Of a stretch of DNA of 64,000 bases, positions 234-63,352 are shown piece by piece. This DNA is from a virus (Duplodnaviria; Caudoviricetes), in IMG/VR virus record IMGVR_UViG_3300014205_000170, positions 64,001 to 128,000 of that record; one strand, written 5' to 3'. Position 1 is the first letter of the stretch. The number at the start of each line of letters is the position of its first letter. Below the pieces are notes generated by a model. It had not been told where the DNA came from. It saw nothing but the letters and a program-made list of their open reading frames with translations, and did not search any database. The position numbers and the translations under genes were made by a program.

Positions 234-494
234 ATGAGTGAACAAATAAACATTCATCTTTCTGTAAATGGTAAGAATGCTCTTGGGTGTCAACGTCATG
301 ATAAACATATTATGATTTCTTATTACGATAGAGGCCAACAGGACTTTGTTGACCTTTTTATGAATCAATTGGAAGCAAAGAATTTTTTAAAAGATTTGCA
401 ACAATGCATTGAAGAAAATGATGATGAAACTATAGCTCCAGCAAAAAGGCATATGTTAATTGAAAAAACAAATTACAAAATGAGGTGGTCATAA
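234..494 (+). CDS. Hypothetical protein, C-terminal RxVLxEK tag
   Basis: RHMLIEK near the C-terminus. Confidence 0.7.
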   Translation: MSEQINIHLSVNGKNALGCQRHDKHIMISYYDRGQQDFVDLFMNQLEAKNFLKDLQQCIEENDDETIAPAKRHMLIEKTNYKMRWS

Positions 495-499
495 TTGGT

Positions 500-832
500 A
501 TGAAAAAACGTAAAATATCTGAAACTAGAGTTGTAATAATAGAAAAATTCGATACCAAGGATGGGTGGATTGATATTAAAACCAATCTACCAAAACCTAT
601 AAGTACAGTATTGATTTGGACAAACATTTCATTTGCAGCTACAATTGGTTATTATACCGGTAGGGACTGGATGTATTTATCTGTTAATGAAAATTTATGG
701 TTAAATAAACATCCACATATAAAAGTATTATATTGGAAACCTTTACCAAATGTTCCAACAGCATATTGTAGACAAATTATGAAAAGCGTAAACGAAGACC
801 AAGATAATGTTGAAGTACTTGATAATGAATAA
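500..832 (+). CDS. DUF551-like small phage protein, N-terminal tag
   Basis: WIDIKTNLP...YWKPLP resembles DUF551 W..V.E.LP...HWMPLP; TRVVIIEK; ATG at 500 preferred. Confidence 0.6.
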   Translation: MKKRKISETRVVIIEKFDTKDGWIDIKTNLPKPISTVLIWTNISFAATIGYYTGRDWMYLSVNENLWLNKHPHIKVLYWKPLPNVPTAYCRQIMKSVNEDQDNVEVLDNE

Positions 833-1055
833 AGATTATTGTATATATACAAATTTTGAATTCGGTGTCAGTGATATTAATAAGAGGATAGTTTTGTTTG
901 AAAAACACAATGATTTAATTGTTGAAAAAAAACAAGAAAAATTAAATAAAAAACTGTTTAGTATACTTATGGAGGCAGCTTCTACAATAGAAAGAAATCC
1001 AAAACAGTTCGTTATGTATTTTGATTATCCAACATTTTCTAAAAAAAGAGAATAA
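825..1055 (+). CDS. Hypothetical protein with tag
   Basis: KRIVLFEK; ATG at 825 preferred. Confidence 0.65.
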   Translation: MNKDYCIYTNFEFGVSDINKRIVLFEKHNDLIVEKKQEKLNKKLFSILMEAASTIERNPKQFVMYFDYPTFSKKRE

Positions 1056-1213
1056 ATTTATGAATCGTTTTTTGTTTATATTCAGTCTTATTACAACTGT
1101 AGTGACAATAATAGTTCCGGTACATCCTTTTTGGGTAGGATGGATATTGTCTGGAGTAAGCGGATTTATGACAGGAAAATTTTTGGTTACTTTATTAACA
1201 GAAAAAATTTAAA

Positions 1214-1462
1214 ATGAGTTTAACATTTGATATAGTTGGCTATAAAGAAAGCACTAGAATGGTAATGTTTGAAAAAAATCAAAGTTATTATTTTAAATTA
1301 GACCCTAAAGGAGCTTGTGAAAAAAGGTGTCACTTACTTTTAAATGGAACTCGTGTTGGTAGTGGTGCTTGTGGAAGATGTATGTTCAATAAAGGTTATG
1401 GTCCAACAGAGAAGTATATAGTCTGTTCTAAATTAAAAGAAGCTTTAACTGAAAAGAATTAA
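1214..1462 (+). CDS. Cys-rich small protein with tag, paralog of 1466..1738
   Basis: TRMVMFEK; GSGACGRCMFN. Confidence 0.7.
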   Translation: MSLTFDIVGYKESTRMVMFEKNQSYYFKLDPKGACEKRCHLLLNGTRVGSGACGRCMFNKGYGPTEKYIVCSKLKEALTEKN

Positions 1463-1465
1463 GAC

Positions 1466-1738
1466 GTGAATAAAAACAAAAAAGACTTTGGTAGTCACAA
1501 CAATACTAGACATGTTATGTTTGAAAAAGCACAAGTTTATTACTACAACACAACTCAGGTACATGGTGTGTCAGGTATGATTCATGTATGTATTGAAACT
1601 TGTCATATCTCTAAAGTTTGGTGTAAAATTGGTAGTGATTTTTGTAAAGAATGCCGATTCAATGTAGGATTTCATATTAAAGAACAATATATTATTTGTA
1701 AAAAGATTAAACAGATTCAACAAAGAAGTGAAAAATAA
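1466..1738 (+). CDS. Cys-rich small protein with tag, paralog of 1214..1462
   Basis: TRHVMFEK; GSDFCKECRFN. Confidence 0.7.
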   Translation: MNKNKKDFGSHNNTRHVMFEKAQVYYYNTTQVHGVSGMIHVCIETCHISKVWCKIGSDFCKECRFNVGFHIKEQYIICKKIKQIQQRSEK

Positions 1739-2210
1739 AATCTACGAAATAATTTGTGTTGTTAAAGTGTGCAATACTGGAAACTTGTCTATGCATAATA
1801 TTCTATGGAGTTTCAATAGTTCAGTTAGTTCAGTTAATACTTCGAGATTTAAAAATGTGAAAACAACAACATTGAGTTTACAATATAACAACCTCGCTTT
1901 TCGTGAAATACAAATATTTAAAAAAATAATAAGGCAATGTGAATGGTTAGAGATTAGTAAGGCTTACCCACCAACATTATTAACTAAAAAGTCATATAAA
2001 ACTTTTAAACAATTTTGGTTAGAGATTGGAGTCAACCCAGTAGATATAAAATTTTTACAGAAGATAGGAAGAATAAGAAGTCTTGTAAATCACAATTTTT
2101 ACAAAAATGGTATTACAATTCAAATATGCCGACCATATAAAATACAAATCTTAACACAAACCAGAAAGGTTATAATTGAAAAACGTAAAAAAAGGAAATT
2201 AACAAATTAA
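1728..2210 (+). CDS. Hypothetical protein, C-terminal tag
   Basis: TRKVIIEK. Confidence 0.65.
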   Translation: MKNKIYEIICVVKVCNTGNLSMHNILWSFNSSVSSVNTSRFKNVKTTTLSLQYNNLAFREIQIFKKIIRQCEWLEISKAYPPTLLTKKSYKTFKQFWLEIGVNPVDIKFLQKIGRIRSLVNHNFYKNGITIQICRPYKIQILTQTRKVIIEKRKKRKLTN

Positions 2211-2803: not shown

Positions 2804-3181
2804 ATGAGCTTTACCAAACAACATAAAGTAAATTTTAAAGAATTATTAAATCAATGGACCTTAAAAAGTCCACTTGCCAATCATTATACTATTCACTTTA
2901 AAGACAAACAAAAGGCTTTAGAATTGGAGGAATATTTACTTGGATTAAACTTTACAGGTAAACCAAGAAGTCAGTCTGATGATAAAAATATTTTTGTTGA
3001 TTGGAATAATACTCGCAGAAAAACATTTTCTATTATAATTTTTCCTAAATTAAACTCTTTTATGAGAACAAAAAGAGTCACTAAAAACTCAAGAGGTTAT
3101 TATAATGTATTATCTGGAGATTCAGTAGAAAAATTTTGTTTTAAATTTGTAATGGTTGAAAAAGCAATTGAATATTTATGA
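2804..3181 (+). CDS. Hypothetical protein, C-terminal tag
   Basis: KFVMVEK. Confidence 0.6.
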   Translation: MSFTKQHKVNFKELLNQWTLKSPLANHYTIHFKDKQKALELEEYLLGLNFTGKPRSQSDDKNIFVDWNNTRRKTFSIIIFPKLNSFMRTKRVTKNSRGYYNVLSGDSVEKFCFKFVMVEKAIEYL

Positions 3182-3636
3182 AAAGTAAACAATTCAAACA
3201 ATTTAATAAAGATGAATATGTTTGTCGTTTTTTTGATATTAACCTTACAAGGATAACGAATTTTTCTTTTAAATTCAAACACAAATTAACGTCAGAAGAA
3301 AAAAAAATTATAAAAAAAATTCTAAAAATAAGTGATGGCTATTGCGTTTATAATGTAGTAGAAAAAAGAACATTAGTTTTTAGAATGAAGCACACTTATC
3401 GTTCTTATAAAGATTTGTATATTGATAACGACATTGATAAAAACATTATACAAACTTTAAAAAATAAAAAAATAATTATTCATATGCTTAACGGGTGGAA
3501 TAGAAACACCAGAAAGAGAGACTATAGTATTTATTTTTATTTTGATGTTGAATATTTTCACAATTTAACATCAACAAGAAAGGTGTTGTTGGAAAAACAT
3601 AAAAGTAGAGGACGAAAAAAGAAGGTACTTGCATAA
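3178..3636 (+). CDS. Hypothetical protein, C-terminal tag
   Basis: TRKVLLEK. Confidence 0.65.
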   Translation: MKSKQFKQFNKDEYVCRFFDINLTRITNFSFKFKHKLTSEEKKIIKKILKISDGYCVYNVVEKRTLVFRMKHTYRSYKDLYIDNDIDKNIIQTLKNKKIIIHMLNGWNRNTRKRDYSIYFYFDVEYFHNLTSTRKVLLEKHKSRGRKKKVLA

Positions 3637-3673: not shown

Positions 3674-4012
3674 ATGGCCAAATTAATAGGTGATAGATAT
3701 GATTTAAAGGCTATGAAATGCAGATTTTGCGGATGTGCTTTTTTGATTGGCATGTCTGTGGTAGGTCAACATGCACAAGCCTGCCATCAGTGCTTAGAAA
3801 GATTTGGAGGTGGTTTTTTAAGCATTAGAATTCCTGAAATTTCTCAGGGAAGTATGAGAAATATGGAATATTTGATTCCGTATTATGTTTTAGCATTTCG
3901 TAATGTACTAACTGAAAAACATGTGAATAATAAAAATACATCTTTAATACAAATTGCAAAAAAATATCCAAATAACGTAAGTAAACATATATTAGTATCT
4001 TTAAGAAGATAA
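3674..4012 (+). CDS. Zn-finger paralog 1 (CxxC..CxxC-GGG-tag)
   Basis: CRFC, CHQC, GGGF, RNVLTEK. Confidence 0.75.
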   Translation: MAKLIGDRYDLKAMKCRFCGCAFLIGMSVVGQHAQACHQCLERFGGGFLSIRIPEISQGSMRNMEYLIPYYVLAFRNVLTEKHVNNKNTSLIQIAKKYPNNVSKHILVSLRR

Positions 4013-4420
4013 ATGGACACTACTGGCATAGAAGAAATAACAACAGAACATCAAAAGAGATTAGAAGAGAAGTTCTACCCAATTACTTATTGTAAAATGT
4101 GTGGGGATAAATTTTTCATCAACAGATATGGTAGTAATGAGCGTTTTTGTCTTGGTTGTTTAAAAGAAGCAGAAGGTGGTTATTGTGAAATAAGAATAGA
4201 GTTTAAAGAGTATCTCACTAAGAAAATTAGAGAAAATTTTTTTTTAGACAACCGAAATATTTTGGTACCATATAAAAGTTTTATGATTCACAGAAATGTA
4301 CTAACAGAAAAATTTTACATTAATAATCAGAGAAAAAATTCTATAAATAAATTACTCATTAAGTATCTCGAAAATTCTAAGGGCATAACACAAGAAGAGG
4401 TAATATTTGAAAGAGTTTGA
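4013..4420 (+). CDS. Zn-finger paralog 2
   Basis: CKMC, CLGC, EGGY, RNVLTEK. Confidence 0.75.
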   Translation: MDTTGIEEITTEHQKRLEEKFYPITYCKMCGDKFFINRYGSNERFCLGCLKEAEGGYCEIRIEFKEYLTKKIRENFFLDNRNILVPYKSFMIHRNVLTEKFYINNQRKNSINKLLIKYLENSKGITQEEVIFERV

Positions 4421-4899
4421 AAAACAGCAGATATACATATAATAAACGCACTACTATTGGTAATAACAAAAACATTAAGCCTAAGCAAAAGTCTATGGCT
4501 AAACGTTTGGAATGCCCTATAAAAAATGTAAAACCAAAATCAAAAAGTTCAAAAATGGATTTTTGTGTAACGGGTTTATGTAGTTTATGTAAATCTATGT
4601 TTCCAGAAGCATATGAGAAAAAAGGTAAAAACACAAGGCGACATTTCATTGGATGGGACCGTTCAATTTGTTCTTCATGTTTTGAGAAATCTGGTGGTGG
4701 ATTTTATGAAATTGAAATACGTACTCAAATAGATACCAACACTGTTAATTTACAACTTTATATTATTCCGTACAAAATATTGGAATCAAGAAATGTATTA
4801 TTGGAAAAAAACAAAAATGACAGAGATGTATCCTTGGTGAAAATTGCTATAAAACACGGAATACAACCTACCGAAAGTTTAATGTATACATTAAGTTGA
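4417..4899 (+). CDS. Zn-finger paralog 3
   Basis: CSLC, CSSC, GGGF, RNVLLEK. Confidence 0.75.
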   Translation: MKNSRYTYNKRTTIGNNKNIKPKQKSMAKRLECPIKNVKPKSKSSKMDFCVTGLCSLCKSMFPEAYEKKGKNTRRHFIGWDRSICSSCFEKSGGGFYEIEIRTQIDTNTVNLQLYIIPYKILESRNVLLEKNKNDRDVSLVKIAIKHGIQPTESLMYTLS

Positions 4900-5282
4900 A
4901 AAAGATTAAAAAAAATACCACGAGTATTCCAGCAATATCAAATTTAGATAATGGCTGGACTTATACTAATCCAGCACTGTTACATAAGTTAAAAAAATGT
5001 ACAATTTGTTTTGATTTGTATGAACCATCAAAAAAATTAAAAAAAGGAACATTAATTATTTGTCCAGGATGTATTGAAAAATTAGGTGGAGGCTTATTGC
5101 GAATAGAAGTTTTTGTTAAAGAGTATGGTATAATCGAATATCATATACCTTTTAAAGTTCTAAATTATAAAAACGTTTTAATTGAAAAATATACTAATTC
5201 GCTAAATTCCCCAATGTTACAATTGGGTAAAAAATACAATTTAGGAAGTACTGTGCATTTTGTTAGTCCATTACCAGAATGA
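4896..5282 (+). CDS. Zn-finger paralog 4
   Basis: CTIC, CPGC, GGGL, KNVLIEK. Confidence 0.75.
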   Translation: MKKIKKNTTSIPAISNLDNGWTYTNPALLHKLKKCTICFDLYEPSKKLKKGTLIICPGCIEKLGGGLLRIEVFVKEYGIIEYHIPFKVLNYKNVLIEKYTNSLNSPMLQLGKKYNLGSTVHFVSPLPE

Positions 5283-5653
5283 GTTTTGTAGAAAAATACA
5301 TAATGTCTTCTGATGTTGCTGCTAATAACAAAAAACCAACAGTATTTTTCAGTATAGTATGTACTGTATGTAAAACTGTTTATAGTTATAATACTATATG
5401 TGGCACAGAAGGTGAAATTTGTTCTTCATGTATTGAAAGAGCTGGAGGTGGATTCATTAAAACGGAAGTTATATTTTTTGAAGAGGTTCTTTGTTTTGAA
5501 TGGGTGAAATGTTTTTATATAACATACACTTCTCTTCAAACAAGAAATGTATTAACAGAAAAACACATCAACTCAATGAACACTTCTCTTGTACAGATAG
5601 CACAAAAGCACAAAGCTGTAATGACTGAAAAAAGAGGAGAACAGTTATGGTGA
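5279..5653 (+). CDS. Zn-finger paralog 5
   Basis: CTVC, CSSC, GGGF, RNVLTEK. Confidence 0.75.
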   Translation: MSFVEKYIMSSDVAANNKKPTVFFSIVCTVCKTVYSYNTICGTEGEICSSCIERAGGGFIKTEVIFFEEVLCFEWVKCFYITYTSLQTRNVLTEKHINSMNTSLVQIAQKHKAVMTEKRGEQLW

Positions 5654-6000
5654 TGTTTGTTGAAAAAATATTAAAGAAAATTTATAGTAAACACAATTAT
5701 AAAAGAGATATTTTTTGTTCATATTGCGATTCAATGTTTGCTTGTAAGCGTATTGTGAATTATCATTATTGGGCTTGTAATGAATGTTTAAAAGAAACCG
5801 GTGGCTTTTTAATAGAAACAAGAACAGTACACACATCAGAATACACAACAGAAGAGTGTTCTTCAACCATAAGCTTTTTTATTACAAATAAAATTTTGGC
5901 AAACAGAAATGTATTAACAGAAAAACATAGGAATACTATTAATGACTCTTTAATAAGAATAGCTATCAAAAATGACGCAAAATTTGTTGTTTCTCCTTAG
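5647..6000 (+). CDS. Zn-finger paralog 6
   Basis: CSYC, CNEC, TGGF, RNVLTEK. Confidence 0.75.
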   Translation: MVMFVEKILKKIYSKHNYKRDIFCSYCDSMFACKRIVNYHYWACNECLKETGGFLIETRTVHTSEYTTEECSSTISFFITNKILANRNVLTEKHRNTINDSLIRIAIKNDAKFVVSP

Positions 6001-6042: not shown

Positions 6043-6052
6043 TTAAAAGACT

Positions 6053-6304: not shown

Positions 6305-6559
6305 ATGTTCAGCTTTGGAATAATGGATGGCGAAGAGTGTGGACGAAATGGCTGTAAAGGCATTTTGGAAGAAAAACCACAAGAATTGGAAGGATGTTCT
6401 TGTCATCTTCATCCACCATGTGCTTATTGTGTAAACAAAGTTGGATGCTGTCCAATTTGTGAATGGAATACATTGGACAGTTTAAACACAAGAGTAATGT
6501 TGTTTGAAAAATATGAAACCATTAAAAAAGAAAAGAACAAGCGGCGAAATACGCGTTAA
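6305..6559 (+). CDS. Cys-rich protein with tag
   Basis: CSCHLHPPCAYC; TRVMLFEK. Confidence 0.65.
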   Translation: MFSFGIMDGEECGRNGCKGILEEKPQELEGCSCHLHPPCAYCVNKVGCCPICEWNTLDSLNTRVMLFEKYETIKKEKNKRRNTR

Positions 6560-8480: not shown

Positions 8481-8933
8481 ATGCAAATCCCTGTAATTCC
8501 AAAATATAAAACGGTTCTTATTGAAAAACAATTATCAAAATTTGAAATTGATTTTTTTGATGTGATTAACGATGGAGTTTGGTTGGAGGATTTTAATCAT
8601 TGGCCAGATAACTATTTCTTTTTTAAGTTTTTCCAAAAAGAAAAACAAGAATGTATTTTTAGATTTAGTGCAATTGGAAATGCTTTTTATTGCGATATGG
8701 ATTTGTGGAATTATTACGAAAAGCAATATAGTATTTATTCTGAAAATGTTTTTTTGAATACATTTACAAAAACTTTAAAAAAGTTTTTTAATTTATCTAA
8801 CATACATTTTTTATATCCAACAAAACTTGATAAACAAGCTGATTTACTTCCTTGGTATGAGTGGTTAAATGTATACAATAATAGAATTACATTTTATGAA
8901 AAAGAAACAAGAACTTTAACTTATATAAAATGA
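8481..8933 (+). CDS. Hypothetical protein, N-terminal tag
   Basis: KTVLIEK. Confidence 0.65.
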   Translation: MQIPVIPKYKTVLIEKQLSKFEIDFFDVINDGVWLEDFNHWPDNYFFFKFFQKEKQECIFRFSAIGNAFYCDMDLWNYYEKQYSIYSENVFLNTFTKTLKKFFNLSNIHFLYPTKLDKQADLLPWYEWLNVYNNRITFYEKETRTLTYIK

Positions 8934-9645: not shown

Positions 9646-9851
9646 GCTCATTAGAAGAATATATAGCCATAACTTCAATTCCAGTATCTATCTGGATGTT
9701 AAATTACGTATTGGAATATGCGATTAAAAAACATGATAAAAAAAAGTCTCAACGTTTGCATGACCACTTACACAATACGACAAGAAGACGTGTTTTGTTG
9801 GAAAAAATTAAAAAAGAAAAATTTGAAACAAATAATATTAGCATGATTTAA
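9642..9851 (+). CDS. Small membrane protein with tag
   Basis: N-terminal hydrophobic segment; RRVLLEK. Confidence 0.6.
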   Translation: MSSLEEYIAITSIPVSIWMLNYVLEYAIKKHDKKKSQRLHDHLHNTTRRRVLLEKIKKEKFETNNISMI

Positions 9852-10116: not shown

Positions 10117-10767
10117 GTGCCGAAGGTAGTTCAATCTTTAAATAAACCAGGCAAGAAGACCAAAAAGCCTATAAAAAAGATTGATTATGATTTTTCTTCG
10201 AGAATAGTCATAACTGAAAAATCCAATAAACAACTTGAAAGAATTCTTTCTTCTTTAGATAATAGTCAATATACTACTGAGATAATCCCTTTAAACAACA
10301 ACGATATTGCTATTTATCAAACTTGTGAAAAATTATCCAAACAAATTTTTGGAAAAGCATCAAAAAAAATAGATGTTGTACGTTTAATGATTTTTGACAC
10401 ACATACATTTAAAAACATTGTTCTACAATATTCTTTGGAAAGATATTTTGAAATGCAACGTGACTGTCAATTTACAACCAGTTCTTCATGGAAAGATTTT
10501 ATTATGACTGGATTAATAGCTATACCAACACAAGCAAAACATTCTCTCATAAAATATGCTGTACAAAATAGACTTGATAGGTTAAAAAAAGAAATAGAAT
10601 TTAATTTTCCTTATTTTCTAATAACAAGAGCTTTAATTCTTCCGTCAGCAATTAAAATTGAAAACATATATAAAGACTTTAAAAGACAAGATTCACGCTT
10701 TATTAAAAAAGAAATTAATAATTTTTGTGATAAAGTAAAAGCATTTGAAATAGCAACACCACAATAA
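10117..10767 (+). CDS. Hypothetical protein with tag
   Basis: SRIVITEK. Confidence 0.65.
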   Translation: MPKVVQSLNKPGKKTKKPIKKIDYDFSSRIVITEKSNKQLERILSSLDNSQYTTEIIPLNNNDIAIYQTCEKLSKQIFGKASKKIDVVRLMIFDTHTFKNIVLQYSLERYFEMQRDCQFTTSSSWKDFIMTGLIAIPTQAKHSLIKYAVQNRLDRLKKEIEFNFPYFLITRALILPSAIKIENIYKDFKRQDSRFIKKEINNFCDKVKAFEIATPQ

Positions 10768-12629: not shown

Positions 12630-12995
12630 ATGATAGATATTTTAAATAATAAAAGACAAGTATTGGTTGAAAAGCATAATTTTCAGTTTTTAGCCTGTTA
12701 CATCAACAATTGGAAAAACACAATAGTGCGAAATCAATTTTATGAAGCAGCTGCTATATTAAGAGAGTGTGCAAAATTATTAGAAATGGACTTTGAATCG
12801 AAAGGAAATAAGTTCAGTTGTGCTGATACAGATTTTTGGTTTCAAGTAATTACAAAATACATGGAGCCAAGAATTTTAGAAAAAATAAAAGAGTCACAAA
12901 AAGATGAAAATAAAACTTTAAAATATGCTAAAAAGTTTGAAGCTTTGGTGAAAAAATTTAAAGAATTAGAAAGAGAAGAAAACAAACAAGAATAA
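12630..12995 (+). CDS. Tag plus UVR-like helix protein
   Basis: KRQVLVEK; IVRNQFYEAAAILRE resembles UvrB/UvrC motif. Confidence 0.6.
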   Translation: MIDILNNKRQVLVEKHNFQFLACYINNWKNTIVRNQFYEAAAILRECAKLLEMDFESKGNKFSCADTDFWFQVITKYMEPRILEKIKESQKDENKTLKYAKKFEALVKKFKELEREENKQE

Positions 12996-15896: not shown

Positions 15897-16166
15897 ATGT
15901 CTTTTATATTACAACGACATATTTTTATAGAGAAATTTCCACATCCAGGATTAAAAAGTATTTTAGAAAACGAAAAGAAAGCTATTCTTGAACAAGATTA
16001 TGAAGCAGAGGCAACATATAGCGCTTTGGAAAGAAATTTTTACCGGCTCAAATTTGGATATGAAATTGCAAATGAACCAAAACCTTATAATATTTGTTGG
16101 GAGTTACAATCAATCTTAGAATTACTTAATAAAATTCAGAAAAAAATCAAATTTAGAAAAACATAA
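15897..16166 (+). CDS. Tag plus UVR-like protein, paralog of 16439..16717
   Basis: RHIFIEK; KAILEQDYEAEA. Confidence 0.6.
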   Translation: MSFILQRHIFIEKFPHPGLKSILENEKKAILEQDYEAEATYSALERNFYRLKFGYEIANEPKPYNICWELQSILELLNKIQKKIKFRKT

Positions 16167-46570: not shown

Positions 46571-46792
46571 ATGAGTCGAGCAACAAGAATAATGTTAATA
46601 GAAAAGCATTTTGACATAACTCCTCGTTTTTCTTTTACTCATCGTGGAATAAAAGAAGCAGGAATATTTATTAGAGAAATAGGTGGCATTGAACAAATGT
46701 ATGAAACTTGGCCACCTTGGTTTAATCCAACTGTACTAGGTATAATTCATAGAGCAAATAACTTTTGGGAAAGATTAAAAAACAATGAATAA
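46571..46792 (+). CDS. Hypothetical protein, N-terminal tag
   Basis: TRIMLIEK; ATG at 46571. Confidence 0.65.
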   Translation: MSRATRIMLIEKHFDITPRFSFTHRGIKEAGIFIREIGGIEQMYETWPPWFNPTVLGIIHRANNFWERLKNNE

Positions 46793-51073: not shown

Positions 51074-51592
51074 ATGAAAAAATTTAATTCTAAAGATTAT
51101 TGTATTTTTAAAATTAGATATTATGCTAGTGACTACCTTTTGAAAAAATGGCGAGAAGGTGCAGCTCAACCAAAGCAACATTATTATAGAGCAGAACAAT
51201 TAACTAAATTCAAATGGGAGTTAATCAAAAAAATAACCGGAAGAACACATAATTACTATTGGAAATTATATATGGTCGAAACAACTGAGTGTGTTTTTGA
51301 TGAATTAGTTGAATTTCATAATGTTCTAACACTTGATAATGAAAAGTATTTTCTTTTATTAATACCTGTAAAAAAGAAAAAATTAATAGAATGGGTAAAA
51401 GAAAATGTAAAATTACCATATATAATTTTAAACAAAACACGTTCTTATTTTTATTTTGAAAGGTTAAAACATAATGTTTCAAACAACGGAAGAAGAGAAA
51501 GAGCAAAACAATTTTCAGAAAAGAGATTATTAAAATGGTTTAAAGAAGATAATACGAGAAAATTATTAATTGAAAAACACCATAATGGATAA
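51074..51592 (+). CDS. Hypothetical protein, C-terminal tag
   Basis: TRKLLIEK. Confidence 0.65.
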   Translation: MKKFNSKDYCIFKIRYYASDYLLKKWREGAAQPKQHYYRAEQLTKFKWELIKKITGRTHNYYWKLYMVETTECVFDELVEFHNVLTLDNEKYFLLLIPVKKKKLIEWVKENVKLPYIILNKTRSYFYFERLKHNVSNNGRRERAKQFSEKRLLKWFKEDNTRKLLIEKHHNG

Positions 51593-52235: not shown

Positions 52236-52652
52236 ATGTTTCCAACATTTACTCATACATTCACTTATAAAGCATTACCTTTAAAAAGACAGTATAGTAA
52301 AAACAATTTTAAAATTCAAAAGTTTCATCGACTAGGTTGGTATCATGTTTTTTATAACGAACACTTAATTGGAACTTTTAGAAATGAATTTACTGAATTT
52401 GGTTCTGGACTAATTAGTTTATGGTCTACTTCTTTTAAAATGGAATTGGGCGCATTTGAAGATATGGCGATAGGCGGAACAGTTATTTTTAGATTATTAG
52501 ACACAGATAGGGTAAAACTACATATAATTGATGTTTTTCCGGAAACGTTTCAAAAATTTGTTTTCGCAAAATCTGTATTAGTTGAAAAACAAAACAAAAA
52601 TGTATTTCCTATTGCTCAACGTGTATTGGCTAGGACATTTATTAATGTATAA
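52236..52652 (+). CDS. Hypothetical protein with tag
   Basis: KSVLVEK; VFYNEHLIG shared with 54114, 55863, 56290. Confidence 0.65.
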   Translation: MFPTFTHTFTYKALPLKRQYSKNNFKIQKFHRLGWYHVFYNEHLIGTFRNEFTEFGSGLISLWSTSFKMELGAFEDMAIGGTVIFRLLDTDRVKLHIIDVFPETFQKFVFAKSVLVEKQNKNVFPIAQRVLARTFINV

Positions 52653-53214
52653 TACTTTTAAAATATTTGAAATTTTACCACCTTTACCAATAGTTTCTGT
52701 AACTACCAGGGAAGTTTTATTTGAAAAACATAAAACATTGCAACTTAAACAAACTTATGAAAGACTTCAAAAAACTTTTCTTAAAAGAGGTGAATATATA
52801 TGGTTTGCAAATTGCAATACTTTTGAAATTACCAAATACGTGATTGCAAAAGTGCCGACAGAAATAATTTATAGACAACTAGACAGAGAAAACAGAATAA
52901 CTTTTTTTAGTCGAAGCGGTAAAGATGATATTTCTATTGGGTGTCAAAAATTTTTAGACTCTTTTGATGCTCAAACAGCAATTCCTGTTCAGGTTTTTGG
53001 AGTTTCGGATAAACAATTAATTTGTTCTTCTCAACAAAATGCTATTCTTGCATTGAAAATTTATATTCCACAAGCCATTAAAATGTTAAATGAACAGATT
53101 CAAAATTCAATCGAATTTCAATCTGCATTTAAAGTATTTGAAAAAAGAAAAATAATACAAAAACTATCAAAACTTCAAAAAAAAATTAATAGGTTCTTAT
53201 TAGAAAAAAAATAA
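52645..53214 (+). CDS. Hypothetical protein, N-terminal tag
   Basis: TREVLFEK; ATG at 52645. Confidence 0.65.
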   Translation: MYNTFKIFEILPPLPIVSVTTREVLFEKHKTLQLKQTYERLQKTFLKRGEYIWFANCNTFEITKYVIAKVPTEIIYRQLDRENRITFFSRSGKDDISIGCQKFLDSFDAQTAIPVQVFGVSDKQLICSSQQNAILALKIYIPQAIKMLNEQIQNSIEFQSAFKVFEKRKIIQKLSKLQKKINRFLLEKK

Positions 53215-53215
53215 T

Positions 53216-53227: not shown

Positions 53228-53536
53228 GTGAAATTTATTCCTACAACATCAACTTTGAAAAATCCTTTACCGGACCCAGCAGCTTCACATCCTTTTATAC
53301 AATCATTAGGTGAAAACTATGAAGACATAATGTGCTATTGTTTAGGAGAACATTGGAGAGCAACTTCTTTAAAAGAATCCCTTAATTGGTTTAACAAAAG
53401 ACTCGGAATTACTATATCTGAAACCACTAATGTTTTGGAAACAAGTCAGATTATAAAATCAAGATATGAATGGCTTCTATGTTATCATAGATACAGAGAA
53501 GTATTAATAGAAAAAACACATAACATTTTAAGGTAA
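53228..53536 (+). CDS. Hypothetical protein, C-terminal tag
   Basis: REVLIEK. Confidence 0.65.
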   Translation: MKFIPTTSTLKNPLPDPAASHPFIQSLGENYEDIMCYCLGEHWRATSLKESLNWFNKRLGITISETTNVLETSQIIKSRYEWLLCYHRYREVLIEKTHNILR

Positions 53537-54114: not shown

Positions 54115-54614
54115 TGTCAATTCTTGATAACAGAACATATTATGTAGGTCATTTTACATTTACTCCAAATAGAGCCGGAGATACGCGAGATTTTATGGTT
54201 TTATATGCTGATGAACCAATAGGGACATTTTCAACAAGACAATCGGTCAAATCCACATATTCTCACAAAAACAATGAACCTTATTGTTATGAAATTTTTG
54301 AATTCCCTATTCTAGATGAAGAAAAAATTATTGTAGGTAGTTTTAAAGTCACTCTATTTCATTTGACTAGAGACCCTTATAACGATTTAAAAGAGAATGG
54401 TTTTAATAAATTAAAAATAGATAATATTCAAATCGATTTGTCAAAATCAGATTATATTAAAAAAAAATTTGTATCTCCAAGAGAAATATTAACTGAAAAA
54501 TATCAAGAAATTACTATAAATATTTACGGTCAGGTATATACAGTCAGAAAAGGTATCGCTCGATACAATAAAAACACCATAAATCAAACCTATTATAATT
54601 CTTTCCTTTTATAG
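54114..54614 (+). CDS. Hypothetical protein with tag
   Basis: REILTEK. Confidence 0.65.
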   Translation: MSILDNRTYYVGHFTFTPNRAGDTRDFMVLYADEPIGTFSTRQSVKSTYSHKNNEPYCYEIFEFPILDEEKIIVGSFKVTLFHLTRDPYNDLKENGFNKLKIDNIQIDLSKSDYIKKKFVSPREILTEKYQEITINIYGQVYTVRKGIARYNKNTINQTYYNSFLL

Positions 54615-55059: not shown

Positions 55060-55398
55060 TTGGTGGGTGATTTACTAAAAAACAAAGAAGTTACAATAAA
55101 AAAAGCTAGGTTTTGTTGGGGTTGTGCCTCAAAAAAAGAACCTGGCACAATAATGAATTATCTGGTCTACGTTGAAGATTCTGACCTTTTAACATCATAT
55201 TGGTGTGAAGTATGTAATGCATATTTTAATTCACATTCAGAATATTTGGATGACGGTATACTGTATGGGGAACTTAAAGGAGAAAGGTCATATGAAGAAT
55301 TTAAGCAAGATTATTTACATCCAACACGAGAAGTACTTTTTGAAAAAAATATTGAATTTTGGAAAGGGTTTATGGCAAGAATAAAATTACACAAATAA
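55060..55398 (+). CDS. Zn-binding phage protein, C-terminal tag
   Basis: CWGC...CEVC; TREVLFEK. Confidence 0.65.
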   Translation: MVGDLLKNKEVTIKKARFCWGCASKKEPGTIMNYLVYVEDSDLLTSYWCEVCNAYFNSHSEYLDDGILYGELKGERSYEEFKQDYLHPTREVLFEKNIEFWKGFMARIKLHK

Positions 55399-55862: not shown

Positions 55863-56300
55863 ATGACCATTAGAAAAAGAATAAAAAATAAATGGCATTC
55901 TCAATTAGGGGATTTTTTATTTAAAAGGGCCACATATCATCCAACGGGTGAACGCTCTTTTGAAGTGTGGTATAAACATGATTTTATTGGTGATTGTTTT
56001 TTAGGGAATTCTTATTGGATAAAGACCATTGACCCTTTCCCTGAATCTATATCTTCTAATTATAAAGAAGAGGATTTAAGAGTCGCAAGAATAGATATGA
56101 GACTTGAAGCTAATAAAGAATTTATAAGTGGACATGTTGGTAGATTGATTTACACAGGACTTAGAAATCAATTTCCAGAAAAAATTCTGTATGTTGAATT
56201 ACATGATAATATTTTAAAATTAAAAAACAGCATTGTTACAAAAACAGTATTTGTAGAAAAACTCAAAAAAAAATTAGTTCCAAAAGAAGATGAGTTTTAA
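55863..56300 (+). CDS. Hypothetical protein, C-terminal tag
   Basis: KTVFVEK. Confidence 0.65.
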   Translation: MTIRKRIKNKWHSQLGDFLFKRATYHPTGERSFEVWYKHDFIGDCFLGNSYWIKTIDPFPESISSNYKEEDLRVARIDMRLEANKEFISGHVGRLIYTGLRNQFPEKILYVELHDNILKLKNSIVTKTVFVEKLKKKLVPKEDEF

Positions 56301-56751
56301 GAAAAAAAACAAAAAGAATAAGGGTGGTCCTAGAAAAAAATGGTCTAAAACCAAAGGAGATTTCACTGTAAAACATCCAATTTATGATGGAGGAGATGTT
56401 TATATTGATGTATATTATAAAGATGAATTAATAGGCATTGTTGAATCTTATTCAACACTTAGATATTTAGACCAAACTGATGAATATGAACTTGTAATTA
56501 ATTCAATACAAAAAGAAGATGCAGTCGAAATTTTTCGTTCGAGAGTTATTGGTTTTATGAAATGCAGAGGATTATCTCATAGATTACCAAAAGTAATTGA
56601 TAATATATATTTAAGTGCAGATTGTGAACTCATTTTAACAAAATGTTTATTAATAGAAAAATATTTCGAAAATAATCAAACACGATTTGTTGTGGGACTA
56701 TCACCTATAAGACGAAGAAGAAGAGTTGCAGCCAAAGGACCTGACCGTTAA
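56290..56751 (+). CDS. Hypothetical protein with tag
   Basis: KCLLIEK. Confidence 0.65.
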   Translation: MSFKKKNKKNKGGPRKKWSKTKGDFTVKHPIYDGGDVYIDVYYKDELIGIVESYSTLRYLDQTDEYELVINSIQKEDAVEIFRSRVIGFMKCRGLSHRLPKVIDNIYLSADCELILTKCLLIEKYFENNQTRFVVGLSPIRRRRRVAAKGPDR

Positions 56752-57149
56752 TGTTAAACAACAGAGTAAATATTGATAAATTTAATTATACTTTTAAAGT
56801 ATATTCTGAAGAAGAAATTAAACAAGTTCGTTTTAATGTTATGAAAATAATTATTGTAAAGAACAAAGGACATGCTAGAGCTATTCGTAAAAGAACAAAA
56901 TGTAATGAAGTAATAACCGGAGATATTTTTTATAGTGAATCATGGTGGTTAGAGGCAGAAGAATTTAAATTTCTTCCTCCCACAAAAACAGGAATGGCCA
57001 TACAAAGGAACAATGAAATAATTTGGTACTCAATTCCTGGCATTCCAAAAGGAACCGCTAAGCGTACAATATTATTTGAAAAAAGCCCCAGAACACGTTT
57101 AAAAATAAAAATAAAACACACTCAATTATCAAACAAATATGATATTTAA
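56751..57149 (+). CDS. Hypothetical protein with tag
   Basis: RTILFEK. Confidence 0.65.
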   Translation: MLNNRVNIDKFNYTFKVYSEEEIKQVRFNVMKIIIVKNKGHARAIRKRTKCNEVITGDIFYSESWWLEAEEFKFLPPTKTGMAIQRNNEIIWYSIPGIPKGTAKRTILFEKSPRTRLKIKIKHTQLSNKYDI

Positions 57150-57514: not shown

Positions 57515-58051
57515 ATGGCTTTGGTTCAATCAAAAAAGGTATTATTTGAAAAAACATCTAAATTATCTTCATCGATAGGATTTAGATTTGTGAACAACAT
57601 TGCATTTATTACTGATAAACACATAGCTTTTCATTTTAAAAATGATAATTTAAATTGCATATTAGTATGGACATCCCTTCAAAAAGAGTGTTTTCATACA
57701 GATAATGGCCTATCTAATAAAATGAATCATTTTTATGAGAAAACCATAAATCAAAACAACTTCTTTTATGAGGGTTTAGGTTTAATGTCTGAAACATCTT
57801 TCATCAATTCAGGGTTTAAAGAATTATCAAAAAATGCTAATGTTTGGGAAACAATAAATAAATTATGTTTAATTGGAGAAATCGTCAAAATAAATGTTTT
57901 AAAGTATTTAGATAACATTTATACTGTAGATGATGCCATAGCCTCAACAACACTGTCAACAGACCATTTATTCAACACTTTAAAGACTCAGTTTGTTAAT
58001 TTAACAATGAATGAATTTCAAAGAAAATTTCAAACAATTGGAATACCATAA
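57515..58051 (+). CDS. Hypothetical protein, N-terminal tag
   Basis: KKVLFEK. Confidence 0.65.
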   Translation: MALVQSKKVLFEKTSKLSSSIGFRFVNNIAFITDKHIAFHFKNDNLNCILVWTSLQKECFHTDNGLSNKMNHFYEKTINQNNFFYEGLGLMSETSFINSGFKELSKNANVWETINKLCLIGEIVKINVLKYLDNIYTVDDAIASTTLSTDHLFNTLKTQFVNLTMNEFQRKFQTIGIP

Positions 58052-58079: not shown

Positions 58080-58550
58080 ATGAACAAGACCACTAAACCC
58101 ACTATTATAGACGACATTGTATTTGAAGTGCAATTTGCATTGTGTGATGTCCTATATAGAAAACTTTTGAGTTTACTGGCTTCTACTCATACGGAAACTT
58201 TATTATTACCTTTTAATGAATTATATCAATTTCGTTTAAGTGCGGAGTTAAATGCAAAATATGCTTTAAGTTTTTATTCTAAAAGAACGAATAATAGTCA
58301 ATCTTATGAGGATATGTTGGATTTTAAAAAGAAAATTTCTATTACTGAAATTCAGGACCCAGTAATATTATTTATTTTAGAACAAAAATTAGAAAATAAA
58401 CCTGAGCTTTATTCTGCGTGGGCAGAGACAGTAAAAAAAGCTATTAAAAAGTTAATGGAAGAAGAAAAAAAATTTAAAAATATTTTAGAGGATATTAAAA
58501 ATTTACCTTTTGATTCTCCGACACGAGAAGTAATTATTGAAAAGAATTAA
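58080..58550 (+). CDS. Hypothetical protein, tag at extreme C-terminus
   Basis: PTREVIIEKN-stop. Confidence 0.7.
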   Translation: MNKTTKPTIIDDIVFEVQFALCDVLYRKLLSLLASTHTETLLLPFNELYQFRLSAELNAKYALSFYSKRTNNSQSYEDMLDFKKKISITEIQDPVILFILEQKLENKPELYSAWAETVKKAIKKLMEEEKKFKNILEDIKNLPFDSPTREVIIEKN

Positions 58551-58783
58551 TGGAAATTGAATATAAATTATCATATTTTGAAACACCTAAGAGAAAAGTT
58601 TTAATTGAAAAAAACAATCCTAGTTGGTTAGATGCTTATTTTGATACTACATTTTCGGTAGATATAAATGCGCTCTTTTTACAACAAGTGGCTCTACAAA
58701 CCATAATGAAAGATAATATGTTTTCTTCTGTTGGGATACCTTCTCATTTAATAAAACCGTCTAATGAGAATAGTGCTGATTGA
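58550..58783 (+). CDS. Hypothetical protein, N-terminal tag
   Basis: KRKVLIEK. Confidence 0.65.
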   Translation: MEIEYKLSYFETPKRKVLIEKNNPSWLDAYFDTTFSVDINALFLQQVALQTIMKDNMFSSVGIPSHLIKPSNENSAD

Positions 58784-59390
58784 AAAAACATTAGACAATA
58801 AAGACCTTTTAAATTTAAGTGACACTCTTAAAAAAGCCAATCTTGTTACTGAAATTGTGTTTTTTTCAAATGACCTTATAATTTTTAGAGGTGAAAATAC
58901 TTTTATAAAGAAAGCAAATCATAGAAAAGCTTATGATGTAAAAACACAAAGAATAATTGCAATATCTTGTATGGCTTTACCCCAAAAAGAGTTTCTATAT
59001 TTAAGAAATAAAATACACTCTTTGGATATCTCAAATTATTATCCAAAATTTGATGGGATACCATATAGATTTATAAATTTACTAGGTCATGATAGGGTAT
59101 TGAAATCATTTCAACCAAATGAATTTTACGAACAACATGAAAAAGAAATAATAAATTTAATTTTCAGCAGTCATATAACTTTAAAAAAGAGTGTTAAAGA
59201 ATTTTTATCTTATGATTTAAATAATATGAGAGATAGTATAATCAAGGAAATTTTTAAAAATTATTCTAATGTGTATAAATTTTATCGTAAGCAAATAAAT
59301 ACACAAATTATTGAAGATGAAATCGTAAAAAAAGCTAAACAAATGAGATTATTAAATTTAAATAAAAATGGAAAACAACAAGTGGCTTAA
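58764..59390 (+). CDS. Hypothetical protein, tag at extreme N-terminus
   Basis: MRIVLIEK. Confidence 0.7.
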   Translation: MRIVLIEKTLDNKDLLNLSDTLKKANLVTEIVFFSNDLIIFRGENTFIKKANHRKAYDVKTQRIIAISCMALPQKEFLYLRNKIHSLDISNYYPKFDGIPYRFINLLGHDRVLKSFQPNEFYEQHEKEIINLIFSSHITLKKSVKEFLSYDLNNMRDSIIKEIFKNYSNVYKFYRKQINTQIIEDEIVKKAKQMRLLNLNKNGKQQVA

Positions 59391-60686: not shown

Positions 60687-60715
60687 TGTAACTTTATCAC
60701 AAATATAGCGTTTAA
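60687..60715 (+). promoter_or_regulatory. ECF-sigma-like promoter
   Basis: TGTAAC-N16-CGTTTAA upstream of 60766. Confidence 0.75.
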
Positions 60716-61901
60716 AAATTCAATGAAAACTACTAAAAATTATACATTTATTAAAAAAAAATAATATGGATGTAGGTTTAAATAACAAAAACACACTTGG
60801 TGAAATAGCGCCGGAATTCAAAGATGTTGTATTCTTCGTAGAAGCTACGAGCGCTGAAAAATTTAATCTTTGGCAGGAATGGTCTGAAGAAAGTAGAACT
60901 AATATCGAACCACTTTCAGATGACTTTATTAATTCTTTACCGGAATCATGTAAACAAAAAATTAAAGACCTCAACGACCAAGTGAAAGATTTTAAACACA
61001 CGAGAGTTAATTGGGAAGAAGTTAGTGCTGGTTTTATGCTTACAATAGGAAAAGTATACAAAAAACCAGTAAGTGTATGTTTTAATTTCGCTTTCATAAA
61101 TGGACATAAAATATGTTTTTATGAATGTACTTCTCAAATGGCTGACCACAAAATGATTGAGGATTGGCTTATTAGCAAATTCCAATTAACACATGATAAA
61201 TATTCACGTTGGAATCACACTAATGCAACAAATTTTCATAATTGTGTAAATAGTCTTGATAGTATTGATAAAGAACCAAGAAATACAATCTATAAAAAAT
61301 AAATTAGAGAGTCTAGTTTACTTATATTAAAGCAAACAATAATGGGATACAGAAATTATATTGGTTCTTTACCAAGAAAAGAATATGATAAAATCAAGGA
61401 TTTTACAAAAGAAGAATTGTATAAATACAAAAATGTAGACAAAGATGATTATCTTGGTGTTTTTGATTTAAAAGAAAAAGAATTATATGAATTTGGAAAA
61501 TATTGTGATTTTGCAAGAGATTTTTTCAAACCTGTTTTTTCCAATAAAGAATTACAAGAGGATTATAATGAGGAACAAGATTGTTATCTTGTCGAAAAAG
61601 ATTTTTTGAAACACGTCATTGAACACTACACAAAACAAACTCAGGATTTTTATCTCGAATTAGTAAAAAACTCTAACAATAACGTAAATAGCATATCACA
61701 ACAAAACTTAGAGAAACTATTTGCTCACATAAGAAGCATGTCTTCCGAATGGAATTATCTCACACCTTTCAAATTAGATGAAGGAGAAAGCATAACAACT
61801 AGCTGGAAATATGAATATGCCATTTTTGAATTGGTTCGTTTGTATAAACATTTTGATTGGGAAAATAACGTAGTAATTTATTATGGTTATTAATTTTTAG
61901 T

Positions 61902-62456
61902 TTATCTACTATACTTTTTCCAAATTTCTAAATCCAAGTCTGCCGGATTCTTTTTATTCTGTTTGCAATAGTTCAAAAACACCTGTTCTAATTGCAAATA
62001 CTTTTTTTGAATTGGTGTAGATTTTGGTGTTTCTATTTTAAGCTCATCTCTTAACCATTTTAGAATATGAGTATCAAGAACAGCTATGTTTTGATTTGGT
62101 CTTGAATGTAAAATATAAAATCTGGCTGTTTTTGGACCGATGCCGGTAATGCCCTCTAAATCTTGCACAGAATAATTAAACATATCAAGTTGAATAATTT
62201 CCTGGAATGCTTTATTTATTTTTGTATATTGACCTAATTTAGCTTCTTGAATTTTTTCTAGCAATACATTGTTCGAAATGTATGTTTGAATCAATTTAAA
62301 TGGAGATAATTTGTTATTATCCTTTTTGAGAAATAAATCTAATTTTTTAGCTTGAATTGAAGCTGTTTTACCGGCCACTATAATGCAAAATAGAATTAAC
62401 TCTTCTAATTCTTCTTTTGTGCGCTTAAAATTGGTTATGTCCCTTGGGTCTATCAT
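61902..62456 (-). CDS. HhH DNA glycosylase-like protein (Ogg2-type)
   Basis: HhH motif ITGIGPKTARF, AVLDTHIL, DLDLEIW. Confidence 0.75.
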   Translation of the reverse strand: MIDPRDITNFKRTKEELEELILFCIIVAGKTASIQAKKLDLFLKKDNNKLSPFKLIQTYISNNVLLEKIQEAKLGQYTKINKAFQEIIQLDMFNYSVQDLEGITGIGPKTARFYILHSRPNQNIAVLDTHILKWLRDELKIETPKSTPIQKKYLQLEQVFLNYCKQNKKNPADLDLEIWKKYSR

Positions 62457-62480
62457 TTTGGTAAAGTTAAGAAAAATTTC

Positions 62481-62488
62481 TATCTTTG
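62481..62488 (+). promoter_or_regulatory. Bacteroidetes -7 element
   Basis: TATCTTTG upstream of 62512. Confidence 0.55.
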
Positions 62489-62511
62489 TGAGTAATTCGT
62501 AAGCAATTAAT

Positions 62512-62934
62512 ATGGAAGAATTTTTTAAACTTAAACAAGTTGTTTCTGATACTCAACAACAGCAAAGATATGCTGAACGGGAGTTGTCAGATTATATACG
62601 CGATAATGCAAAAAGATTATTTGAAGGGACTTTTTGGAAAATTGAATATACACATGAAACTCAATATTATTTTTGCAATCACATTGTTGAAAATGCTCCT
62701 GGGTTTGGAGACACCTTATGCTTTAGAATAGATTCTTTTAGTATTTCTCACTTTAAAAGGCCAAAAGAAATAAATCAAAAATTCTCAAAAAATTATATAA
62801 CATCAAATTTACATATGTTTAAAACTCAAATCACTAGAGAAGAATATGAAACAAAATTTGAAGTTTTTCGAAATACCTTAAATGAGTTTTGCCATCTAAG
62901 AACAGAAATTTTAATTGAAAAATTTCATGAATAA
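62512..62934 (+). CDS. Paralog pair member, C-terminal tag variant
   Basis: LFEGTFWK, ITREEYE, TEILIEK. Confidence 0.7.
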   Translation: MEEFFKLKQVVSDTQQQQRYAERELSDYIRDNAKRLFEGTFWKIEYTHETQYYFCNHIVENAPGFGDTLCFRIDSFSISHFKRPKEINQKFSKNYITSNLHMFKTQITREEYETKFEVFRNTLNEFCHLRTEILIEKFHE

Positions 62935-63352
62935 GATAGAAGAACAACATAAAGAACTAAGAGAACATTCAAAGGTCAAGGACCAAGAATCTAAATTAGC
63001 AAACAATAACCTAATACAATTTCAACATCAAAATTCTAAAATTTTATTTGTTGGAAAATTTTGGAAAACTTCTAGCTTTAGATGTGACACATATGCTTTG
63101 TGTAAAAAAATTTCCGATACATATAATTCTTATGCTTTTTTTGATTGTGTCAAATTTAAAAATGAAAATGAAGAACACCTAACTGATACTTTTACATTTC
63201 AAAGAAATATACATGAACCAATTTATAGTATTTGTCAAGAAGAAATTTCAAGAGAAGAATATGAGCAAGTATTAGAAAAACTAACAAAACACTATCGTGA
63301 ATTTGTAAATTATGAACGAATCGTATTAATAGAAAAAAATGAAACAAATTAA
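62927..63352 (+). CDS. Paralog pair member, C-terminal tag
   Basis: LFVGKFWK, ISREEYE, RIVLIEK; ATG at 62927. Confidence 0.7.
   Translation: MNKIEEQHKELREHSKVKDQESKLANNNLIQFQHQNSKILFVGKFWKTSSFRCDTYALCKKISDTYNSYAFFDCVKFKNENEEHLTDTFTFQRNIHEPIYSICQEEISREEYEQVLEKLTKHYREFVNYERIVLIEKNETN

Follow-up and report, generated by a model that had tools for sequence, protein, structure and literature searches.

What does one short peptide do on dozens of small and mostly unrelated proteins of a single bacteriophage? The question is raised by a 64,000-nucleotide stretch of DNA (the window; bases 64001-128000) from IMGVR_UViG_3300014205_000170, a complete IMG/VR phage record of 518,809 bp with direct terminal repeats and 30% GC. 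The phage is a T4-related megaphage (~519 kb, ~889 open reading frames, ORFs), and the window is crowded with small ORFs on the + strand, many of which encode an eight-residue peptide with the consensus [T/S]-R-x-V-L-[I/F/T]-E-K, referred to here as the tag. A preliminary description of the window had taken the tag to be a portable linear motif that binds one common partner. The analysis reported here points to such a common handle, and among the functions considered, a signal for capsid targeting and processing tentatively leads.

Abundance and placement of the tag

The ORFs (139 non-overlapping ORFs in the window and 889 in the whole genome) were searched with the pattern of the preliminary description, [RK]-x-[VILM]-[VILMF]-x-E-K. 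Across the window, 52 matches fell in the three + frames and one in the three - frames; the in-frame matches numbered 48 and were distributed over 46 of the 139 ORFs, in agreement with the count and coordinates first given. The feature proved larger than noted there: genome-wide, 199 matches were found in 194 of the 889 ORFs (the carriers), compared with a mean of 12.5 and a maximum of 23 in 200 within-protein shuffles of the genome's ORFs, a control that the preliminary description had itself proposed. A six-frame scan of the genome gave 232 matches, distributed as 199 in the coding frame, 18 in other sense frames, 12 antisense and three intergenic. When a position-weight scan was trained on the regular-expression matches, 178 ORFs exceeded a score reached by 0.7 shuffled ORFs, and just six one-mismatch variants were added. 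Furthermore, the top words in an unbiased 5-mer count of the proteome were pieces of the tag (VLIEK, 31; VLTEK, 23; VLFEK, 22), where the shuffle maximum was eight.

The sequence logo reads [P/V]-[N/Q/H]-T-R-x-V-L-[I/F/T]-E-K-[H/Y/T], with no conservation further out. Numbered by the search pattern, the second place varies, with I, K, T, N and E as its commonest residues; the fourth place takes L, I, M or F, and the sixth takes E without exception. A few K-initial matches, such as that at window position 6356, probably arose by chance. Of the 199 copies, 97 are C-terminal and 60 N-terminal (30 residues or fewer from the respective end), and 41 are internal. The distance to the nearest end ranges from 0 to >100 residues, with only 28 copies five residues or fewer from the C-terminal end, and the tails that follow the tag vary from 0 to ~30 residues. 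Double copies occur in five ORFs of the genome.

Carriers account for 33-38% of ORFs of 80-160 amino acids and for 4-9% of those above 300 amino acids, consistent with the earlier remark that the tag is missing from large enzymes. The earlier listing of membrane proteins among the carriers needs correcting, since TM-like segments are depleted (11 of 194 carriers versus 105 of 695 non-carriers; p = 3e-4). A twin-arginine (Tat) signal, S/T-R-R-x-F-L-K, was rejected on the basis of this depletion, the variable second place and the mostly non-N-terminal position of the tag.

Selection on the peptide and its range among phages

Codons inside the tag follow genome usage (GAA, 173 observed versus 166 expected; AAA, 159 versus 165); those for V, I, F and T do not differ from it (p > 0.2), and those for Arg, Leu and the fifth-place Ile depart slightly (p 0.002-0.02). 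Nucleotide conservation ends with the 21 bases of the tag. Contigs of relatives with an 82-86% identical terminase contain the tag too, and in orthologous carriers (34-52% identical) its eight residues are 74% identical versus 38% for the remainder of the protein. Between these orthologues, the tag codons differ by 25 synonymous changes and by 15 non-synonymous ones, most of which fall at the two free places, and Arg is specified by AGA, AGG, CGA or CGT and Leu by TTA, TTG, CTA or CTT. Because the tag has been kept in orthologues through synonymous changes, selection evidently acts on it at the peptide level, as the preliminary description had argued from the variation in codons.

When the tag was written strictly as DNA, this genome gave 59 matches (control, 0), a 40-kb fragment from a close relative gave five, and four more distant T4-like jumbo phage records gave none. 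One tag-less record is complete (372 kb, 28.7% GC) and encodes an S77 protease and a capsid protein that are 64% and 68% identical, respectively, to those of the megaphage; nothing in its 5-mer count rose above the shuffles, and it had no over-represented 5-mer of its own. Since this equally AT-rich relative lacks the tag, AT-richness is not the cause, and chance or composition was rejected on this comparison and on the far lower counts in the shuffles. An equal motif frequency in unrelated AT-rich proteomes, which the preliminary description had named as fatal to its proposal, was thus not seen in this relative. Across 80 capsid-region loci (~1 Mb), there were 0.033 matches per kb compared with 0.38 in this genome. 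Together these comparisons, in which one tag-positive genome was complete, show the tag to be confined, as far as the sequences indicate, to one narrow phage clade.

Portability across unrelated proteins

BLAST clustering with the tag masked divided the 194 carriers into 166 families, including 143 singletons, and neither Pfam nor PHROGs yielded a family common to the carriers. A single homologous family or domain was rejected for these reasons and because paralogues of the tail-tube protein bear tags at opposite ends. Among weak matches, the top one was a carrier in 47% of cases for carriers versus 26% for non-carriers (31% expected); some deeper paralogy among carriers exists, but it cannot explain the pattern of the tag.

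Portability was settled by three families that have relatives outside this phage clade, Tad3-like, Acb3-like and tail-tube; they are tagged only in the clade. The Tad3-like protein (genome 268856-269506) contains a Tad3 domain (PF25185, E 3e-27), and the tag forms its exact end. In the family, the tag is a C-terminal addition past the conserved family end in 29 of 120 homologues, and the other 91 stop at that end; one contig that encodes a tagged Tad3-like protein shows six tags over 20 kb, compared with none over 12 kb of a contig with an untagged homologue. P0015, a relative of the Tad3-like protein, has two tandem tags at its C-terminus. The Acb3-like protein (genome 341232-342056; PF25187, E 6e-37) belongs to a family in which the tag lies in an internal, Gly/Pro-flanked insert of ~27 residues in 21 of 120 homologues; in an untagged member from the same clade the insert is missing and the flanks are joined directly. 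The tail-tube family corresponds to phrog_4542, its match to Pfam gp19 being weak and below the cut-off of that family. In the three tail-tube paralogues, the tag is found in a 43-residue N-terminal extension of one and near the C-terminal end of another; the likely genuine tail-tube gene has no tag, and neither does its homologue in a tag-less phage.

The comparisons show a tag that has been grafted at the N-terminus, the C-terminus or a loop onto unrelated, mostly small soluble proteins. Two expectations of the preliminary description were thereby upheld, namely that the motif is portable among mostly unrelated proteins (166 tag-masked families among 194 carriers) and that orthologues elsewhere lack it, as do the outside members of the Tad3-like, Acb3-like and tail-tube families.

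The structural setting of the tag was modeled for two cases. The Zn-ribbon family comprises twelve paralogues (window 3674-6000 and genome 48,992-57,124) that share a four-cysteine CxxC...CxxC arrangement and a G-G-G motif and have the tag at one constant internal site; its V, E and K are invariant in the 12 members (alignment A3). In the AlphaFold2 model of this family, the tag comes straight after a folded hairpin and a short helix, and pLDDT falls from ~80 to 56-65. In the model of the Tad3-like protein, it is coil beyond the last helix (pLDDT 54-58). Both models fit an exposed linear motif, and neither predicts the tag as a strand in the domain core; the beta-strand thought probable in the preliminary description is thus conjectural.

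Proteins that carry the tag

The carriers are mostly orphans, and anti-defence domains are among the exceptions, as in the Tad3-like and Acb3-like proteins; Tad3 binds the Thoeris sensor ThsB (PMC13728456). The carriers in the window include a UVR-motif protein and Zn-finger proteins. In a further group, the tag accompanies fragments or shortened paralogues of the major capsid protein, of the ATPase domain of terminase or of the tail tube, encoded at genome 432124-432528, 469916-470308 and 308534-308767 (three small genes that combine capsid-protein pieces with tags), 472490-473170, 261867-262433 and 367880-368494. For example, a terminase ATPase-domain paralogue of 226 amino acids has the tag at its C-terminus. 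Relatives have similar capsid-fragment genes, one of their ORFs being ordered tag, spine-helix piece, tag and C-terminal piece, and a portal fragment of one relative is preceded by the tag. The CapRel/Lit, DSR2 and Avs sensors are classically triggered by capsid, tail-tube, terminase and portal proteins, so the tagged virion-protein fragments may be decoys for host immune sensors, or else assembly regulators.

A possible capsid-targeting and processing signal

Because the tag is a clade-specific, exposed and position-tolerant peptide, is under strong purifying selection and occurs on about a fifth of the proteome, we infer that a single partner recognizes it in trans as a common handle. The three functions suggested in the preliminary description, docking on a hub, addressing to the virion and a protease site or degron, are all retained as candidates. 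The reading that we place first, tentatively, is a capsid-targeting and processing signal of the kind represented by the T4 capsid targeting sequence (CTS). The tag would bind the prohead core (the scaffold and/or the gp21-type S77 protease), and this binding would load a large, fast-evolving set of small proteins into the very large capsid, to be co-injected with the DNA. Among the cargo would be anti-defence proteins as well as fragments, resembling decoys, of the capsid, tail-tube, terminase and portal proteins; cleavage by the S77 protease behind the Glu of the L/I-x-E core may follow.

Several features of the genome are consistent with this proposal. A T4-type head module on the minus strand encodes an S77 (gp21-type) prohead protease (genome 358997-359665; PF03420, E 3e-32), an adjoining scaffold-like protein, which is acidic and 491 amino acids long, and a gp23-like capsid protein of 519 amino acids, the PDB matches of which are T4 gp23 and gp24; the large terminase subunit is encoded at genome 311295-312980. 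The presence of the S77 protease lends support to the link with the T4 gp21 consensus made in the preliminary description, as gp21 cleaves after Glu in I/L-x-E (PMC12991175). The tag holds hydrophobic-[L/I]-x-E and in this resembles M-L-N-E, the probable maturation cleavage site of the capsid protein. This site was placed by aligning the flanking blocks to T4 gp23, in which the cut is at Glu65. In the capsid-fragment gene at 432124-432528, the stretch around the maturation site is replaced by a tag-bearing segment, and four small tagged genes keep their place beside the portal and terminase genes both here and in related phages. There is also precedent in T4, the diverse anti-defence internal proteins of which have only a short CTS in common and are loaded into the scaffolding core (PMC3012670, PMC9026906), and in T4 Alt, which is processed at both ends (PMC5694885). 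In addition, giant-phage heads reportedly have room for >40 MDa of ejection proteins (PMC7411985).

Nevertheless, a number of observations weigh against a role in the capsid. A set of ~190 cargo species would be unprecedented, and the T4 CTS is strictly N-terminal, whereas here half of the tags are C-terminal and some are in loops. A cut in the loop of the Acb3-like protein would presumably leave a nicked domain, and in C-terminal tags the residues presumed to serve in targeting would stay attached to the cargo if the protease cut after Glu. The capsid protein's own likely site has neither the invariant Lys that follows the Glu nor an Arg six residues ahead of the cut, so the protease alone does not explain the motif. 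Moreover, the tag-less relatives also have an S77 protease (64% identical), most carriers lie in small-gene arrays without a late-type promoter motif, and it is not obvious what tagged terminase and tail-tube paralogues would do within a prohead. Co-folding of the S77 protease (alignment A4) with a tag-bearing segment of the Tad3-like protein, its last 43 residues (alignment A5), scored 0.00 in a run without controls, which counts neither for nor against binding.

Relation to known targeting peptides

The closest precedent is the CTS of T4 (IPI, IPII, IPIII and Alt, processed by gp21). Like the CTS, the tag is the sole element common to diverse, fast-evolving and partly anti-defence proteins (166 families, with Tad3 and Acb3 among the domains), and it combines an I/L-x-E site with a gp21/S77-type protease in the same phage. 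The CTS differs in being a 10-19 residue N-terminal propeptide of a handful of proteins, while the tag is found on ~190 proteins, at either end or in loops, with no more than 60 of 199 copies near the N-terminus (30 residues or fewer away). The tag also has a sequence of its own, in which the Glu is always followed by Lys and an Arg is preferred ahead of the hydrophobic core. Since the tag does not form an N-terminal propeptide and differs in sequence, it does not belong to the CTS family as defined. Encapsulin cargo-loading peptides are likewise short C- or N-terminal peptides that load unrelated cargo into an HK97-fold shell, but they are Gly/Ser-rich (LxIGSLK type), serve few cargo types and have no protease site. 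The earlier statement that no system of this sort has been described stands in part: no description of such a motif was found in the literature on megaphage motifs, capsid targeting sequences and jumbo-phage short linear motifs, and the T4 CTS nevertheless provides a smaller, N-terminal precedent.

Alternative partners and alternative origins

The main alternative to capsid targeting, possible though doubtful, is that the tag serves as a handle for phage proteostasis machinery, that is, for a ClpC-like ATPase with ClpP, for an FtsH-like protease, or for DnaJ acting with host DnaK. The tag could act as a degron or timer by which accessory proteins are removed as a class; alternatively, it could be an adaptor handle, such that the carrier binds a host target (e.g., a defence sensor) and drags it to the protease. 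The genome encodes a full-length DnaJ (170427-171575), ClpP (172443-173189), a ClpC-like double AAA+ protein with a UVR motif and no N-domain (173917-175938) and an FtsH-like AAA+/peptidase M41 protein with no obvious membrane anchor annotated (484139-486160). The genes for DnaJ, ClpP and the ClpC-like protein form a proteostasis cluster (genome 169,700-176,000), and tagged genes are located between clpP and the clpC-like gene and directly behind dnaJ. Placement at either end or in loops suits tethering more than processing, and among the carriers are truncated versions of capsid, tail-tube, terminase and portal proteins as well as Tad3, a direct binder of ThsB (PMC13728456).

The remaining evidence on a proteostasis handle is divided. 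The tag-less 372-kb relative has no DnaJ and no FtsH-like gene, which would fit such a role, but this profile carries little weight because 733 of 889 proteins have no homologue in that relative, and the relative does have ClpC-like and ClpP-like genes. The genome encodes no ClpS and no Hsp70, and no proteostasis adaptor was found in it; the Pfam batch scan of large proteins covered the best 25 of 104 families and possibly missed further proteases or peptide-binding domains. The known degrons of AAA+ proteases (ssrA, the N- and C-motifs of ClpX, MecA/ClpC clients) are similar in that a short peptide marks many unrelated proteins for one machine, but they look different and sit at extreme termini, whereas the tag is position-free and lies 0 to >100 residues from the nearest end.

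We consider it quite improbable that the tag underlies phage-encoded targeted degradation, in which ~190 tagged binder or decoy domains hand host proteins to the ClpC-like/ClpP or FtsH-like protease. The Tad3-like and Acb3-like modules and virion-protein mimics of sensor triggers would then each seize a host protein. Eukaryotic viruses drag targets to degradation via ubiquitin ligases, and the system would, if real, be the bacterial-virus counterpart of this hijacking.

It is rather unlikely that the tag instead docks on some other common partner (host RNA polymerase, the ribosome, a host protease or an unannotated phage protein) or is a site of covalent modification at Arg, Glu or Lys. The evidence for an exposed motif read in trans applies equally here, most phage proteins are unannotated, and the constraint on six of the seven positions of the search pattern (all but the second), together with the preferred Thr, suggests a deep binding groove or an active site. 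Hub-docking motifs (clamp QL[S/D]LF, PIP box, viral LxCxE, BC-box) are comparable in being exposed, position-tolerant and 5-8 residues long and in allowing many unrelated proteins to use one partner, the viral versions coupling their binders to host machines, but they have no sequence resemblance to the tag, which occupies a far higher share of the proteome (~20%). This is nevertheless a residual category, with no candidate partner and no modifying enzyme linked beside the carriers.

Very little probability attaches to the view that there is no common reader and that the tag is the remnant of one large, fast-diverging paralogue superfamily or a favored structural element. The enrichment of weak carrier-carrier matches (47% versus 26%, with 31% expected) and the existence of small paralogue families, such as the 12-member Zn-ribbon family with its invariant V, E and K, would fit this view. 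It was already largely refuted by the Tad3-like, Acb3-like and tail-tube comparisons, in which paralogues of one domain have tags at opposite ends and the tag was added in families whose outside members are untagged, and it is further opposed by the position of the tag beyond the folded part in both models and by the lack of conservation in neighboring residues. Finally, that a DNA or RNA signal (promoter, recombination site, mobile element or translational signal) mimics a peptide is scarcely credible, even though copies cluster by gene ends and most tag DNA ends in GAAAAA, since 199 of 232 six-frame matches lie in the coding frame, third codon positions vary according to genome codon usage, Arg and Leu codons change among orthologues and no DNA conservation extends beyond the 21 bases, and a DNA repeat or regulatory site was rejected on the same frame-locking, synonymous variation and absence of outside conservation.

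Gene classes and upstream motifs

A terminal gene block (genome 1-46,200 and 516,000-518,700) makes up ~9% of the genome beside the terminal repeats. About 47 genes of this block have TCGTATAGTACA ~13 nt (up to ~35) before the start codon. This class is nearly tag-free (4 of 75 ORFs) and may represent pre-early genes that use a promoter or leaderless-start signal of their own. Another upstream motif, TCGTTTAA, is enriched 11-fold in intergenic sequence genome-wide, with its copies 13-18 nt ahead of start codons; in the window it is found at 6035-6052, 22450-22466, 33455-33471 and 49410-49425, upstream of the ORFs beginning at 6053, 22467, 33472 and 49426, respectively. It has TCGT and its position in common with the terminal-region motif. 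A third motif, CTATTTA[T/C] (genome 357,417-359,721 and 312,981-313,060), precedes the scaffold, prohead protease and terminase genes by 20-40 nt, has a 17-fold intergenic enrichment and is probably the late promoter. Carriers represent 19% of small ORFs in CTATTTA[T/C] operons and 28-38% elsewhere, indicating that the tag is not tied to the late class; by upstream-motif class, carriers are nearly absent from the terminal 0-46 kb class and present in all others. Elements of the form TAnnTTTG are common upstream of genes, which hints at a Bacteroidota host.

Tag copies and other genes of the window

All copies in the window are on the + strand; each is given below in window coordinates, followed in brackets by its ORF and by the residue at which it lies over the length of the protein. 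The first copy, at 447..467, is C-terminal (ORF 234-494, 72/86), and the second, at 527..547, is N-terminal (ORF 485-832, 15/115). These are followed by copies at 885..905 (ORF 807-1055, 27/82), at 1256..1276 (ORF 1214-1462, 15/82), at 1508..1528 in a paralogue of the preceding ORF (ORF 1466-1738, 15/90) and at 2163..2183 (ORF 1728-2210, 146/160), by a K-initial copy at 3143..3163 (ORF 2804-3181, 114/125) and by one at 3577..3597 (ORF 3178-3636, 134/152). The Zn-ribbon paralogues then contribute 3899..3919 (ORF 3674-4012, 76/112), where the tag comes after the folded part in the model, 4292..4312 (ORF 4013-4420), 4789..4809 (ORF 4417-4899), 5169..5189 (ORF 4896-5282), 5543..5563 (ORF 5279-5653), with a second, weaker copy in the same ORF at 5612..5632 (112/124), and 5905..5925 (ORF 5647-6000). 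ORF 6305-6559 contains a copy at 6491..6511 (63/84) and, at 6356..6376 (residue 18), an atypical match with E at the fifth place that is probably due to chance.

Further downstream, copies lie at 8508..8528 (ORF 8481-8933, 10/150), 9786..9806 (ORF 9642-9851, 49/69), 10201..10221 (ORF 10117-10767, 29/216), 12654..12674 (ORF 12630-12995, 9/121) and 15915..15935 (ORF 15897-16166, 7/89). The copy at 16457..16477 (ORF 16439-16717, 7/92) is followed by a UVR motif at residues 19-45. Next come 20381..20401 (ORF 20345-21049, 13/234), the internal copy at 21180..21200 (ORF 21006-21323, 59/105), 22027..22047 (ORF 21994-22437, 12/147), 23681..23701 (ORF 23651-24088, 11/145), 29945..29965 (ORF 29711-29980, 79/89) and 31301..31321 (ORF 31271-31954, 11/227). 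Four adjacent small ORFs are tagged at 41664..41684 (ORF 41451-41696, 72/81), 41870..41890 (ORF 41696-41905, 59/69), 42094..42114 (ORF 41902-42144, 65/80) and 42308..42328 (ORF 42128-42343, 61/71), and a further copy is located at 46586..46606 (ORF 46544-46792, 15/82).

The last part of the window contains copies at 51557..51577 (ORF 51074-51592, 162/172), 52569..52589 (ORF 52236-52652, 112/138), 52708..52728 (ORF 52582-53214, 43/210), 53495..53515 (ORF 53228-53536, 90/102), 54480..54500 (ORF 54114-54614, 123/166), 55327..55347 (ORF 55060-55398, 90/112), 56241..56261 (ORF 55863-56300, 127/145), 56641..56661 (ORF 56290-56751, 118/153), 57063..57083 (ORF 56751-57149, 105/132), 57533..57553 (ORF 57515-58051, 7/178), 58524..58544 (ORF 58080-58550, 149/156) and 58592..58612 (ORF 58550-58783, 15/77). 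At 58767..58787, the tag stands right behind the start codon (ORF 58764-59390, 208 amino acids), and the final copy is at 63317..63337 (ORF 62915-63352, 135/145).

The untagged ORFs of the window include an RNA ligase with a PHA02142 OB-fold, a MetRS-like, an ArgRS-like and one further class I aminoacyl-tRNA synthetase (aaRS)-like protein and a MazG-like protein; these RNA ligase, aaRS-like and MazG-like ORFs lie at 6648-7682, 18898-20352, 39965-41266, 47670-48671 and 49426-50700. The genome also codes for NAPRTase, an NMN transporter, RtcB, peptide deformylase and several more aaRS. The window proteins encoded at 13002-15656, 20345-21049 and 58764-59390 had no close relatives among IMG/VR or INPHARED phages.

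Implications

One peptide may thus address about a fifth of a megaphage proteome to a single machine. If this is true, the tag provides an experimental handle on ~190 orphan proteins at once and would explain how huge phages organize large, fast-changing sets of accessory genes. Through its association with Tad3 and Acb3 domains, it singles out further carriers as new candidates for anti-defence or sensor-decoy roles, and it could serve as a portable targeting peptide for engineering. For T4-related phages, the finding would either extend the idea of the T4 CTS or replace it with a new docking system.

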